A DNA stretch of 64,000 nt from an uncultured Collinsella sp. (lineage in GTDB: Bacteria; Actinomycetota; Coriobacteriia; Coriobacteriales; Coriobacteriaceae), in contig UQTU01000001.1 of NCBI GenBank assembly GCA_900544135.1, positions 47,678 through 111,677 of the forward strand, given 5' to 3'. The position numbers and the translations under genes were made by a program. Shown one piece after another: positions 4,523-12,628 of the stretch (positions are counted from its first letter, which is position 1; each line of letters starts with the position of its first letter). Below the pieces are notes generated by a model that saw only the letters and a list, made by a program, of their open reading frames with translations, had not been told where the DNA came from and ran no database searches.

Positions 4523-7500
4523 ATGATTGCTGTCGACTACAGCTCCTCAACGTCATTTAATGAGGATGCTTTCGAACAAGGCATCATTGACCACTTGCAA
4601 ACGAGCCTGGGGTACGAGCACCTCTATGGACCTGATGTCGCTCGTTCCTCCGACGCGTTTGACGACGCCTTCCTACCTGACGTCATTGGGCCCGCTATTG
4701 AGGGCATTAACCCCACGCTCAATCGACGAGCGATTGAGGCCTCAATAACTAAACTAAAGGAAATCGAGGGCAGCGACCTCATCGCCAAGAACAGCATCTT
4801 TATGGACATGCTCCAGAACGGTGTGGAGACAAGCTGGTTTGACGGCAAAGAAGAGCATACGGACATCGTGCGCTTGGTCGATTACGACAATCCCGAAAAG
4901 AACTGCTTCCACGTTGTTAACCAGTGGACCTACATCGAGTGTGGCACCAACAAACGTCCAGATGTCATCGTATTCGTCAACGGGCTTCCGCTCGTTCTCT
5001 TTGAATTGAAGTCACCCGCTCGTGCCGACGCTGACAGCGAAGATGCCTACCAACAGATTCAAAACTACAAACGACAGATTCCATCGCTTTTCGTGTACAA
5101 CGCCTTCTGCGTCACCAGCGACATGCTTCACACCAAGGTTGGCACGATCACCGCCAACGAGTCGCGCTTCGTTGAGTGGAAGAGCGTCGATGGAAGCTAC
5201 GAGGCCACCCAGTACGCCGATTGGAAGACGCCTCTGGACGGTATGTTCCCCAAGGAGCGGCTCATCGACATCCTGAAGAACTTCATCCTGTTCTCCGAGG
5301 ACGCGAAAATCCTCGCGGGGTACCATCAGTACTTCGCGGTAAACAAGGCACTCGAGAGCGTGCATGAGGCCATCGGCGGCGACGGCAAGGGCGGCGTCTT
5401 CTGGCACACGCAGGGCTCGGGCAAGTCGCTTTCGATGGTTTTCCTTGCCCATCTGCTCGAAGAGAAACTCGACAGCCCCACCATCGTGGTGATCACCGAC
5501 CGCAACGACCTCGACTCGCAGCTGTTCGCACAGTTCTCCAGATGCTCAGATTTCCTGCGCCAGACGCCCGTTCAGGCGCAGAGCCGCGCCGATCTTGCGC
5601 AGCAGATCTCGAGCCGCCGCGCCAACGGCATCATTTTCACCACCATGCAGAAGTTCGAGGAAGAGGCCGTCGCCCTTTCCGAGCGCAAGAACGTCGTGGT
5701 GATGGTAGATGAGGCGCACCGCGGACAATACGGGTTCGAGGAGAAATACGACCGTGACGGTAAGAAGCACACGGGCACCGCGTTGCTCATCCGCCGCGCC
5801 CTTCCGAATGCGACCTTCATCGGCTTTACCGGCACCCCTATTTCTGCCGAAGATCGATCGACTCGCGAGGTTTTCGGCGATTATATCGACGTCTACGACA
5901 TGACTCAGGCAGTAGAGGACGATGCAACTCGACCCGTGTTCTACGAGAGCCGCGTCGTCGCACTCAAGCTGGATCAGGGCATCCTTGCAAAAGTTGATGA
6001 TGAGTACGAAAAGCTCACCGAGCAGGCTAACGCCGAAACCATTGACGCAAGCAAGCGCAACTTTGCAAATCTGGACGCCGTTCTAGGTGCACCCGAAGTC
6101 ATCGATGCCCTATGTCAGGACATCGTAGAGCACTATGAGACCAACCGTGCGCACGAACTCACCGGCAAGGCAATGATCGTTGCGTATTCGCGCCCCGCTG
6201 CCATGGCTATATATCAACGTATATGCAAGCTGCGACCCTCTTGGAAGGACGAGGGCAAGCTCGGCGTTGTCATGACCATGGGCAATCAAGACCCCGAGTG
6301 GTGGTTCGACGTTGTAGGCAATAAGGCCCATGTGAAGGAGATGGCAAAGCGGTTTAAGGATGACGCCGACCCGCTTAAAATCGTAATCGTCGTAGACATG
6401 TGGCTCACCGGTTTTGACGTGCCGAGCCTTGCCACCATGTATGTGTATAAACCCATGCGCGGGTATAACCTGATGCAGGCAATCGCACGCGTAAACCGAG
6501 TATACAAAGACAAGGTTGGCGGATTGGTTGTTGACTACGTAGGCATAGCCAACGCCCTTAAACGCGCCATGAAGGACTACACCAAGCGCGACCAAAAGAA
6601 ATACGGCGACATGGATATCGGGAAAACCGCCTATCCTAAGTTCTTGGAAAAGCTGGCGGTCTGTCGCGACAAAATGTTCGGATACGATTATTCGGAATTC
6701 ATGAGCACCGAGTCCGCCGCACGTCGAAGCGAACTCATAACGGGTGGAGTAAATCATATCCTTGCACCCGGCGACGAAGATGCTGCCCGCGACTTTGTTG
6801 AGCAGGCAGGAGTCATGCTCAAAGCCTATGGACTCGCCAAAAGTCGCGCAACAGACATGCAGCGCATCGAGGCTGGCTATTTCCAGGTTGTTCGAGAGCT
6901 CATCCTTCAGCTCACCGAGCAGGGCGGCGCCCGCAGCAAAAACGGAGGCAAACTTACCCTTAAGCAGGTAAATGAGCGTATCAATGCGCTACTCGAACAG
7001 AACATCGTCCATACCGACGGCGTAATAGACCTGTTTAAGGTGGAAGACGAAACGGTTTCGATTTTTGATCCCAAGTTTCTGTCGAGCCTCTCGCGTATGA
7101 AAGAGAGGAACTTGGCTTACGAGTTGTTGAAAAAACTCATCGACGACCAGATTAAGGGCTACCGCAGGAAGAGCATAACGCAGGCAAAAAAGTACTCGGA
7201 ACTCATGCAAAGCATGGTAAATAGCTATCTAAATGGACAGCTCACCAACGCTGAGGTATTCGAAGAAATGCTCAAGATGGCGAAAGAGATGCTTTCCGAA
7301 AACCAAAAGGCAAAGGAGCTTGGGCTTAGCGAAGAGGAGTTTGCGTTTTACGAGGCGCTAACACAACCGCAGGCAGTCGCTGATTACTATCGCGAGAAAA
7401 ATGACGAGTTGGTCGCCATCACGCAGGAGCTTACTGCGAAGATGCGCGAAATGCGCACGGTCGATTGGCAGAAAAAGCAAAGTGCTCGCGCTGCCATGCG

Positions 7501-7612
7501 TGTTGCAATTAAGCGCCTGCTCAAACATCATAAGTATCCGCCAGAGGGCATGGAGTCGGCACTGGCCACCGTGATGGATCAGTGCGAACTCTGGGCCGAC
7601 AATGCAGCATAG
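4523..7612 (+). CDS. hsdR: Type I restriction enzyme R subunit (HsdR)
   Basis: 1029-aa protein with an N-terminal nuclease region, DEAD-like helicase motifs (GSGKS...VMVDEAHRGQ) and a C-terminal HsdR helical domain. SD AAGGAG precedes the ATG at 4523. hsdM follows 15 bp downstream. Confidence 0.9.
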   Translation: MIAVDYSSSTSFNEDAFEQGIIDHLQTSLGYEHLYGPDVARSSDAFDDAFLPDVIGPAIEGINPTLNRRAIEASITKLKEIEGSDLIAKNSIFMDMLQNGVETSWFDGKEEHTDIVRLVDYDNPEKNCFHVVNQWTYIECGTNKRPDVIVFVNGLPLVLFELKSPARADADSEDAYQQIQNYKRQIPSLFVYNAFCVTSDMLHTKVGTITANESRFVEWKSVDGSYEATQYADWKTPLDGMFPKERLIDILKNFILFSEDAKILAGYHQYFAVNKALESVHEAIGGDGKGGVFWHTQGSGKSLSMVFLAHLLEEKLDSPTIVVITDRNDLDSQLFAQFSRCSDFLRQTPVQAQSRADLAQQISSRRANGIIFTTMQKFEEEAVALSERKNVVVMVDEAHRGQYGFEEKYDRDGKKHTGTALLIRRALPNATFIGFTGTPISAEDRSTREVFGDYIDVYDMTQAVEDDATRPVFYESRVVALKLDQGILAKVDDEYEKLTEQANAETIDASKRNFANLDAVLGAPEVIDALCQDIVEHYETNRAHELTGKAMIVAYSRPAAMAIYQRICKLRPSWKDEGKLGVVMTMGNQDPEWWFDVVGNKAHVKEMAKRFKDDADPLKIVIVVDMWLTGFDVPSLATMYVYKPMRGYNLMQAIARVNRVYKDKVGGLVVDYVGIANALKRAMKDYTKRDQKKYGDMDIGKTAYPKFLEKLAVCRDKMFGYDYSEFMSTESAARRSELITGGVNHILAPGDEDAARDFVEQAGVMLKAYGLAKSRATDMQRIEAGYFQVVRELILQLTEQGGARSKNGGKLTLKQVNERINALLEQNIVHTDGVIDLFKVEDETVSIFDPKFLSSLSRMKERNLAYELLKKLIDDQIKGYRRKSITQAKKYSELMQSMVNSYLNGQLTNAEVFEEMLKMAKEMLSENQKAKELGLSEEEFAFYEALTQPQAVADYYREKNDELVAITQELTAKMREMRTVDWQKKQSARAAMRVAIKRLLKHHKYPPEGMESALATVMDQCELWADNAA

Positions 7613-7626
7613 GGAGTTAAAACAGC

Positions 7627-11801: not shown

Positions 11802-11860
11802 GCTGCTCCTTTCGTCGAGTACGATAGCCACAGTGTGGACGGCGCGTTGTACATAGTGAA

Positions 11861-11878
11861 GTAAATGGCTATTTAGCT
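11861..11878. repeat. Crossover-site copy C (gtaaatGGCTatttagct), just upstream of the silent TRD2b cassette and within the 5' extension of the recombinase ORF
   Basis: Core GGCT in the same orientation as A. On the minus strand it encodes TAQLNSHLL in the recombinase reading frame. Confidence 0.55.
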
Positions 11879-12628
11879 GTGCAGTGTGAGGCAATTGCTG
11901 AACGCGCAACAGGTGAAAATACCGTCCTGGAGTCGCTGTGCGACTTAGTGACCGAGAAAGCCGATTGCAGCGAAGCGGACTTCGATACCTATGTTTCTAC
12001 CGAGTCCCTCCTCCCTAACAAAATGGGCAGGCAGATAGCGTCGTCCCTACCTCAAACAGGGAAAGTGACGGTTTATCAAGCTGGGGATATTCTGATCTCC
12101 AATATCCGCCCCTATTTCAAGAAAATTTGGTACGCGGACCAAGCTGGAACGTGTTCCGGCGATGTTCTCGTATTTAGGGCAAAGCAACCAGAATGGGCGG
12201 GCTACCTTTATTCTTGCCTGCGCAATGATTCCTTTTTCGACTTCGTCATGAAGGGGGCTAAAGGCACCAAGATGCCGCGAGGCGACAAGAAGCAGATGCT
12301 TACCTACGTAGTCAGCGCCAGCCCAAACCAATTGGTAATCGGTTTCATGGCATCGGCGCTCAAGCACATATCAACCGCAAACAAAGAGAGTGAACATCTT
12401 GCTGCTCTTCGTGACGCCCTTCTCCCCAAGCTCATGTCCGGAGAGGTTGACGTCTCAAAGGTCAATCTCACGCAGCTAAATAGCCATTTAGCTGAGATCC
12501 TACGGCCATTCGGATGCCATATCCCCGCAATACAAAAACGGGGCAGCCCGCACTCCTGCGAACCGCCCCGTACCCCTGGCTATCGCGTCATAAGACCAAC
12601 CAGCACCACTCCCCTACTTCCCAAATAG
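11879..12628 (+). other. Silent hsdS cassette (TRD2b plus C-terminal conserved helix); no own start codon or SD
   Basis: TRD-like body ending LAALRDALLPKLMSGEVDVSKVNLTQLNSHLAEIL..., which parallels the end of the active hsdS (LVTLRDTLLPKLMSGEIDVSKVDLTQLNSHLA). It is preceded by site C (read as NGYLAV) and followed by site D. Confidence 0.55.
12474..12493. repeat. Crossover-site copy D (agctaaatAGCCatttagct), at the C-terminal helix of the TRD2b cassette
   Basis: Identical 20-mer to copy B; core AGCC. Confidence 0.55.

Follow-up and report, generated by a model that had tools for sequence, protein, structure and literature searches.

Genes and features of the locus

We describe a locus for Type I restriction-modification on a DNA stretch of 64,000 nucleotides from an uncultured Collinsella sp. 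(contig UQTU01000001.1, positions 47,678 to 111,677). The whole stretch is called the window here, and positions are counted in it unless a contig is named; L and P numbers denote the contigs and proteins with which it was compared. In our opinion it is very probably a Collinsella Type I island into which an hsdS shufflon, run by its own recombinase, is built. Its genes, its segments encoding target recognition domains (TRDs) and its recombination sites are as follows.

4517-7612, plus strand: hsdR, the restriction and translocase subunit; an uninterrupted open reading frame (ORF) of 1031 aa with the Pfam domains HSDR_N, SWI2_SNF2, T1R_D3-like and T1RH-like_C
7627-9150, plus strand: hsdM, the methyltransferase; HsdM_N on 7627-8055 (143 aa), N6_Mtase on 8074-9147 (358 aa)
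9140-9662, plus strand: TRD1a and central helix of hsdS, fixed, in expression slot A behind hsdM; PF01420 after frameshift repair
9663-9678, plus strand: site 1, CTAAATGGCTATTTAG; its translation is LNGYL in the central conserved helix; L002 and L099 have a breakpoint here
9679-10286, plus strand: TRD2a cassette, mobile; here in the middle slot and read with TRD1a; the same cassette is relocated or inverted in other assemblies
10279-10848, minus strand: TRD1b half-hsdS with central helix, fixed, in expression slot B; 189 aa, ending LNGYLAV*, PF01420
10287-10302, plus strand: site 2, CTAAATAGCCATTTAG; LNSHL at the hsdS C-terminus on the plus strand, LNGYL of TRD1b on the minus strand; breakpoint in other copies
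10845-11801, minus strand: Xer-like tyrosine recombinase, 318 aa, with Pfam Phage_integrase and SAM-like domains
11861-11876, plus strand: site 3, GTAAATGGCTATTTAG, with one mismatch at an outer base; breakpoint in L001
11877-12475, plus strand: TRD2b cassette, mobile; includes the C-terminal conserved helix; here occupies the distal slot and faces away from both TRD1 genes
12476-12491, plus strand: site 4, CTAAATAGCCATTTAG; breakpoint in L001 and junction of the deletion form L093-L098

HsdR has the nuclease, superfamily 2 translocase and C-terminal domains that a Type I restriction subunit should have, and is 100% identical to the hsdR products of L001-L007. Its longest ORF opens at 4517; an ATG at 4523 is the start preferred in other assemblies. 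The hsdS start at 9140 overlaps the 3' end of hsdM. Huang et al. (2020), who surveyed such systems, look for at least two hsdS genes or TRD segments in one Type I locus, and here there are TRD1a-TRD2a, TRD1b and TRD2b.

An earlier note, made from the sequence of this stretch, had placed three elements downstream of hsdS, and all of them are indeed there: a minus-strand half-hsdS consisting of TRD1b and the central conserved region (10279-10848, with its PF01420 match), a tyrosine recombinase coupled to it by an ATGA overlap (at 10845-10848), and a plus-strand TRD2b cassette with the C-terminal helix and without a start codon (11877-12475). The note counted two silent TRD cassettes. This holds for TRD2b, which is silent in the window because it points away from both TRD1 genes, but not for TRD1b, which instead provides a second, convergent slot for expression. 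The idea that slot B is never completed, which arose since a search with TRD1b listed no full-length TRD1b-TRD2 protein, was refuted by P0265 and P0381 in a later HsdS search.

TRD2b has no credible start codon, only a fortuitous GTG, and it is similar to the HsdS of PDB 7vru. An ATG just outside site 4, giving 'MAVGSQ', is regarded as fortuitous, as it is not kept among relatives. Pfam searches with the unrepaired, separate pieces gave no match for TRD1a, TRD2a or TRD2b; frame repair or a recombinant HsdS was needed. A sigma-70 promoter scan was uninformative (3 matches against 3.4 expected), the sole solid signal being a hairpin at 12538-12571 on the minus strand.

One core at every junction

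Four 16-bp cores alternate along the locus, sites 1 and 3 in one orientation and sites 2 and 4 as its reverse complement; they are inverted repeats inside the hsdS coding sequence, which is another feature that Huang et al. (2020) look for. The four copies of one imperfect palindrome that the earlier note saw at all junctions are these cores, and they are not expected by chance: no match with two or fewer mismatches occurred in 100 shuffles. The core is palindromic save for two bases of its central tetranucleotide, and because of these two bases it has a direction.

The core is also dual coding. Read one way it encodes LNGYL of the central conserved helix, and read the other way LNSHL of the C-terminal helix. 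Since it codes usefully in both directions, a single type of site can serve every junction and still keep the reading frames. Each TRD2 cassette has the core CTAAATGGCTATTTAG as its 5' boundary and the reverse complement of that core as its 3' boundary. A TRD1 that faces an antisense cassette runs into a stop two codons past the core (LNGYLAV* or LNGYLAA*) and yields a half HsdS; the stop comes from a TGA in the antisense of the conserved 'LTQ' codons. Past site 2 the gene ends as LNSHLALSYS*, on the minus strand past site 1 as LNSHLA*, and past site 4 with a 44-aa tail.

Site 3 is unlike the others, as there is no stop on the minus strand 3' of it before the recombinase start (window 11802-11860), and hence the segment upstream is fused in frame to the recombinase. 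The linker LHYVQRAVHTVAIVLDERSS, 26 codons without a stop between the LNSHL core and the recombinase, is kept across Collinsella and is stop-free in all relatives examined. The resulting ORFs would encode cassette-recombinase fusions of 554/557 aa, HsdS-recombinase fusions of 722/725 aa and, in another species, one of 755 aa (L037 6690-8957); P0374, P0394 and L107 6001-8169 are among the instances.

Arrangements found in nature

Contigs were fetched from human-gut assemblies and public data, and segments of the window were mapped onto each. More than 45 copies of the locus in human-gut assemblies have cassettes 99.4-100% identical to those of the window. The same cassette set occurs in at least six inversion states and one deletion form, with all breakpoints within the 16-bp cores. 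The states, written as middle slot/distal slot, are these.

2a(+)/2b(+): the window
2a(+)/2b(-): L001; sites 3 and 4 recombined, the segment between them inverted
2b(+)/2a(-): L002-L010 and most of L230-L239; cassettes swapped
2b(+)/2a(+): L233 and L234
2a(-)/2b(-): L099-L106; yields TRD1b-TRD2a of 396 aa and a TRD1a half of 181 aa
Segment with recombinase and TRD1b turned onto the hsdRM strand: L107-L109

In coordinates, the segment at 9.66-10.30 kb is inverted in L099-L106, that at 11.86-12.49 kb in L001 and L099-L106, and that at 10.29-11.87 kb in L107-L109. The inversion of segments between the palindromes, as proposed in the earlier note, is thus borne out by L001, L099-L106 and L107-L109, with breakpoints at the 16-bp sites. 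A single locked arrangement across related strains, which by the same note would have spoken against a shufflon, is not what we find, given at least six states for one cassette set. L099 is nearly clonal with the window: over 8022 bp on the left there are 7 mismatches and 1 gap (99.90%), and over 6376 bp on the right 5 mismatches (99.92%). Yet in this copy both TRD2 cassettes are inverted. Hence alternative arrangements, which Huang et al. (2020) also look for, occur in different samples, including one from a near-clonal relative.

The TRD2a cassette can be followed through these states. It is inverted in place in L099-L106, lies in the distal slot in either orientation in L002-L010 and in L107-L109, L233 and L234, and is fused behind TRD1b in P0265 and P0381; P0265 is the 396-aa TRD1b-TRD2a protein that is made when the middle cassette flips, and it occurs in 22 contigs. 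TRD2b in turn is part of a 389-aa TRD1a-TRD2b HsdS in L002-L010 and L230-L239. In the deletion form, L093-L098, precisely the stretch from site 2 to site 4, two cores in direct orientation, is missing.

When every inversion was simulated on the window sequence after repair, 16 structural states resulted, with full-length products of 392, 389, 396, 393, 437 and 440 aa, fusions of 722 and 725 aa, and halves of 181 and 189 aa. Proteins of 392, 389, 396, 440, 722, 725, 181 and 189 aa with the expected sequences were found in the public collection. The inversion products therefore keep the hsdS frames, as required by Huang et al. (2020), in the simulation and in predicted proteins of public data.

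Despite an exact shared repeat of no more than 21 bp, contigs L011 and L012 break at the sites, a hint, though no proof, of mixtures within one sample. In L016, from a Collinsella metagenome-assembled genome (MAG), positions 7264-11548 are a tandem duplication, 100% identical, with a 2135-bp unit of TRD2 cassette, recombinase and TRD1b. It may be either the footprint of a circle integrating at the core or an assembly artefact of a heterogeneous population.

The recombinase

For the recombinase the most likely start is the GTG at 11801, which an AAAGGAG ribosome-binding site precedes, and the resulting length of 318 aa is common to most homologues at about 82-92% identity. It scores 245 bits against NCBIfam NF040815 (XerA-like; cut-off 220), and in an alignment with the XerA structure of Pyrococcus (4a8e) its catalytic R, K, HxxR, H and Y find their counterparts. 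A site-specific recombinase with its catalytic residues, in or next to the locus, is likewise part of the description by Huang et al. (2020).

Many 'recombinases' of 485-557 aa also came up in the search with this protein; they are read-through ORFs in which a TRD2 cassette is followed by LNSHL, the linker and the recombinase. P0001 carries TRD2b and P0002 carries TRD2a; on these contigs, therefore, the cassette next to the recombinase either has the orientation opposite to that in the window or is the other cassette.

Lesions in the window copy

The locus of the window carries two lesions. In hsdM, an in-frame TAA at 8056-8058 splits HsdM_N from N6_Mtase. In hsdS, a run of six C at 9581-9586 instead of five causes a +1 frameshift, which puts TRD1a out of frame with the rest. 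The codon in question is TTA (Leu) in 25 of 25 other readable copies of hsdM, and the run is C5 in 27 of 27 other readable copies of hsdS. Removal of one C in silico restores a 392-aa HsdS with a PF01420 match in two stretches; in the window, an HsdS with two TRDs and the central and C-terminal helices is seen only in this repaired protein, the gene as sequenced being frameshifted. Hence the earlier note was mistaken in regarding hsdS (TRD1a, central conserved region, TRD2a) as complete. The order hsdR-hsdM-hsdS that it gave is right, and hsdR is intact, but hsdM is interrupted by the TAA and hsdS by the frameshift.

An intact HsdM is thus missing from the window, while the 507-aa gene is intact in 30 of 34 related copies. 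The knock-outs in the other four complete copies of this cassette lineage are independent: the window (8057), L008, L096 and L230 differ in the position of the lesion, which in two of them is a nonsense codon and in the other two a 1-nt deletion. Loss of the methyltransferase thus seems to recur in nature. L008 also has a split recombinase. From a Type I enzyme with a truncated hsdM neither modification nor restriction is expected. Because of the nonsense codon in hsdM and the frameshift in hsdS, the enzyme is most likely non-functional in the window; the recombinase and all cassettes remain intact.

Proposed mechanism and alternatives

We propose that two fixed, convergent half genes, TRD1a behind hsdM on the plus strand and TRD1b behind the recombinase on the minus strand, would share two mobile cassettes, TRD2a and TRD2b. 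The Xer-like recombinase would join oppositely oriented cores (1x2, 3x4, 2x3, 1x4) and invert the DNA between them. In this way the middle cassette would be handed to TRD1a or to TRD1b, the cassettes would swap slots, and the segment with the recombinase and TRD1b would itself flip. The outcome would be 16 structural states and four full-length HsdS combinations, 1a-2a, 1a-2b, 1b-2a and 1b-2b. Recombination of directly oriented cores could, in addition, delete the recombinase module. The anatomy of the locus, its reading-frame logic and the occurrence of alternative arrangements in nature are matters of observation; that each HsdS variant gives a different N6-methyladenine (m6A) motif, and that switching within a clone is frequent, is what we infer from them.

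Several points weigh against this interpretation. The recombinase would be the catalyst of the inversions judging from its adjacency and from the site-specific breakpoints, and sample-to-sample differences and breaks in assemblies are what would point to switching within a clone. Among the cluster members listed there was no TRD1b-TRD2b product (393 or 437 aa). At the tvr and cod loci only the hsdM-proximal hsdS is reported to be active (PMC6265443, PMC7672463), and by analogy slot B may not contribute. Finally, the two lesions of the window could be sequencing errors. If both the hsdM TAA and the extra C of hsdS were errors of sequencing or assembly, the window locus would be fully functional. 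Indeed the extra C sits in a homopolymer, a typical site of error on some platforms, every other copy read has TTA and C5, and, inversions aside, only 7 mismatches and 1 gap in 8 kb separate the window from L099. However, a T-to-A substitution is not a typical platform error, the two independent lesions are in the same enzyme, and three other assemblies have independent hsdM knock-outs at different positions. Since such lesions recur in other copies, the nonsense codon of the window is more likely real than an error, and a fully functional locus in the window is in our opinion unlikely, if worth bearing in mind.

Regarding the way in which the cassettes move, one may ask whether they are excised as circles between direct cores and reintegrated, as at pneumococcal tvr, instead of being inverted. 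Sites 1/3 and 2/4 are direct repeats, L093-L098 are without exactly the DNA from site 2 to site 4, the perfect tandem duplication of cassette, recombinase and TRD1b in L016 is what integration of a circle would give, and excision with reintegration is documented for TvrR (PMC6265443). Yet such a process preserves orientation and therefore cannot make the cassettes inverted in place (L001 and L099 compared with the window) or the flipped recombinase segment of L107; besides, L016 may be an assembly artefact, and L093-L098 may be a form that preceded insertion. We regard excision in place of inversion as very unlikely, while both pathways may coexist. It is more improbable still, in fact hardly credible, that the arrangements are old, frozen differences between lineages, made by rare RecA recombination between C-terminal repeats, with the recombinase irrelevant or inactive. 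The C-terminal regions of the two TRD2 cassettes do share a 96-nt repeat of 79% identity, and such a view would draw on the indirect case for within-clone switching. However, the breakpoints lie in the exact core of 16-21 bp, including sites 1 and 3, which are without extended homology; two inversions separate near-clonal genomes whose flanks are 99.9% identical; one cassette set is found in at least six states; and the catalytic residues are intact, the recombinase and the exact core being conserved across about 26 Collinsella species. We retain inversion at the cores, probably by the recombinase of the locus, as our interpretation.

A further question is whether the locus is a mechanistically distinct variant of the hsdS shufflon. 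Such a claim would join three features. One core would let a single recombinase perform both in-place inversion and the excision and integration of its own module; convergent TRD1 genes would time-share the cassettes, so that a full-length and a half HsdS would always be co-expressed; and half of the states would fuse HsdS or a cassette to the recombinase (ORFs of 722-755 aa), which could couple the switching rate to the state. Taken jointly, the dual-coding core, the time-shared cassettes and the recombinase fusions make a claim that we consider rather doubtful. If it were true, the recurrent hsdM knock-outs (4 of 34) would reflect a cost of switching specificity.

Comparison with known systems

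The locus is a new member of the known class of hsdS 'epigenetic invertons'. Huang et al. (2020) found members of this class in many phyla, including 98 loci in Actinobacteria, and divided the invertases into six clades (PMC7672463). Clade 2 (TvrR) occurs in Actinobacteria, Firmicutes and Bacteroidetes and includes Bifidobacterium longum and Euryarchaeota (PMC7672463, Table 2). The phyletic range of the window recombinase family matches that of clade 2, and, judged by this range, the recombinase probably belongs to a TvrR-like clade.

The earlier note had named SpnD39III as a precedent. The broader assignment to phase-variable hsdS systems was correct, but the closest precedent is of the tvr/SpnIV type (TvrR clade), and SpnD39III differs more. 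At tvr of Streptococcus pneumoniae, Kwun et al. (2018) described one core repeat at the hsdS mid-point and tail, with direct repeats and excised circles (PMC6265443). Both tvr/SpnIV and the Collinsella locus have a Xer-like tyrosine recombinase within the hsdS array, N- and C-terminal TRD segments that serve as modules, and one short core repeat at the central helix and at the end of the hsdS tail; in both, excision that removes the recombinase module is either seen or to be expected. The differences concern the repeats, which are all direct in tvr, with circular intermediates, whereas the Collinsella cores alternate and in-place inversions are documented. The deletions of L093-L098 and the duplication of L016 are compatible with an added excision pathway. 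Further, the Collinsella locus is without the TvrAT toxin-antitoxin pair and has two convergent TRD1 genes that share cassettes.

SpnD39III (ivr/cod, CreX/IvrR/PsrA) is similar in that inversions of hsdS segments make several HsdS alleles and in that the recombinase lies within the invertible region. However, it has three pairs of inverted repeats (15, 85 and 333 bp), one expressed hsdS with two silent partial ones, and a recombinase of another clade (PMC7672463). In Collinsella all junctions are made with one 16-bp core, and expression slots number two; instead of three distinct repeat pairs and a recombinase of the CreX/PsrA clade, we find one core type and an enzyme best described as XerA-like (NF040815).

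From the same phylum, the clade-2 inverton of Bifidobacterium longum F8 has hsdR, hsdM, hsdS, an invertase and an extra hsdS (PMC7672463), and recombinases in Bifidobacterium genomes are 60-76% identical to that of the window. The F8 locus and other loci of Actinobacteria were catalogued by genome mining only (PMC7672463). In Mycoplasma pulmonis (hsd1/hsd2, HvsR), site-specific inversions at short sites in hsdS likewise swap TRDs between opposite hsdS genes. There, two full-length hsdS genes flank hsdR/hsdM, the sites are vip and hrs, and the recombinase is encoded elsewhere and also serves vsa (in part after PMC7672463). The literature searched contained no description of a Collinsella system, nor inversion data or a site for one; the papers that it gave for Collinsella and 'hsdS' all concern hydroxysteroid dehydrogenase (HSDH).

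Distribution and exchange

The recombinase family is represented in at least 570 stretches among species-representative genomes. Its identity to the window protein falls into the following ranges.

Collinsella: 93-98%
Bifidobacterium, Eggerthellaceae, Slackia: 60-77%
Bacteroidales, Lachnospiraceae, Treponema, methanogens: 56-64%

About 26 Collinsella species representatives, and some Eggerthellaceae, share the exact 14-mer core and the layout with four sites. Between them the Collinsella representatives show all four combinations of cassette orientation, and one (L037) has its recombinase segment flipped. A variant core, TAAATGATTATTTA (LNDYL/LNNHL), is found in Bifidobacterium criceti, Methanimicrococcus and others. 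Related loci with another core centre are L038, L039, L046, L048, L051 and L089 (Bifidobacterium criceti, an actinomycete MAG, Eggerthellaceae and Methanimicrococcus); the variant cores TAAATGATTATTTA and TAAATAATCATTTA would encode LNDYL and LNNHL, with the arms kept and the central bases changed.

In the NCBI protein P0396 (385 aa), TRD2b is essentially the same, but its TRD1 partner is another one, that of a different Collinsella lineage. Likewise, hsdR and hsdM show 97-99% identity between Collinsella species that differ more in their flanks. On these comparisons, both cassettes and the whole island appear to have been exchanged between species.

The island and its insertion site

The whole system lies on an accessory island of about 8.4 kb, which is delimited by empty-site contigs, low GC content and high identity between strains.

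4067-12537 (approximate): accessory island carrying the whole system

The GC content of the locus is lower than that of its surroundings, as had been noted before: it is 0.524, against 0.616 in the DNA to the right. Between the window and L001 identity is 99.4-100% over about 3501-12493, and mostly 93-96% in the flanks. The site next to the island contains the Collinsella-1 small RNA (Rfam RF01700) at 3918-4117 on the minus strand, 400 bp upstream of hsdR and on the opposite strand (149 bits). A scan for this RNA gave 120 metagenome contigs, and in only 12 of the 98 with enough sequence on the side in question is hsdR next to it. The commonest layout is the empty site, in which the Collinsella-1 core is directly joined to a hairpin after a 462-aa zinc-ribbon gene. 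Since most contigs carry the same chromosomal site without the locus, and since identity within the locus (99.4-100%) exceeds that of the flanks (about 94%), the view that the restriction-modification shufflon is an accessory island acquired horizontally, which the earlier note also took, is supported. No recombinase-type core was found with up to 3 mismatches at the island ends or in the empty sites, hence there is no evidence that the recombinase of the locus inserted the island.

In contigs without the island (L116, L114, L130) the Collinsella-1 motif scores 207 bits. In such contigs its 5' hairpin is the hairpin after the 462-aa zinc-ribbon gene, which in the window is 8.4 kb away (12538-12571, minus strand). 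The island was therefore inserted inside the Collinsella-1 motif, between the 5' hairpin and the conserved core. The motif itself looks like a 3'-untranslated or terminator-linked element of the zinc-ribbon gene. An obligatory partnership between this RNA and the restriction-modification system was considered and rejected, as the RNA is absent from four Collinsella loci with the system and from related loci in other genera, and as most RNA-bearing contigs are without the system.

The site between the Collinsella-1 core and the zinc-ribbon gene holds varied inserts, in L114 and L113 (about 700 nt, an unrelated AT-rich segment), L129 (about 4 kb) and L162 (about 9 kb). The insert of L185 has an HsdR match of 98% identity and an HsdM match of only 22%. 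Judging from this variety, the site looks like an integration hotspot. The flanking gene at 12614-14002 (minus strand) encodes the 462-aa multi-zinc-ribbon protein, with weak zinc-ribbon matches including Cas12f1-like_TNB. On the other side, the genes at 1459-2553 and 2617-3405 (both plus strand) encode a YhcG/DUF1016 PD-(D/E)XK nuclease and an ADP-ribosylglycohydrolase.

Significance

Phase-variable Type I systems alter the methylome of clonal populations, and hence their barriers to phages and to DNA uptake. To our knowledge, they have been studied almost only in pathogens. In Collinsella, an abundant genus of gut commensals, a compact example is widespread, and public metagenomes show its states directly. 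Its design includes a dual-coding core, two convergent slots for expression and a read-through into the recombinase.

Regarding annotation, the copy in the window is to be recorded as a pseudogenised system, and database 'recombinase' or 'HsdS' proteins of 485-755 aa as read-through ORFs from particular shufflon states. The Collinsella locus could serve as a natural model for the speed of switching in the gut and for the frequency with which such systems are lost. The main value of the finding is a correct annotation together with a tractable model in a commensal.

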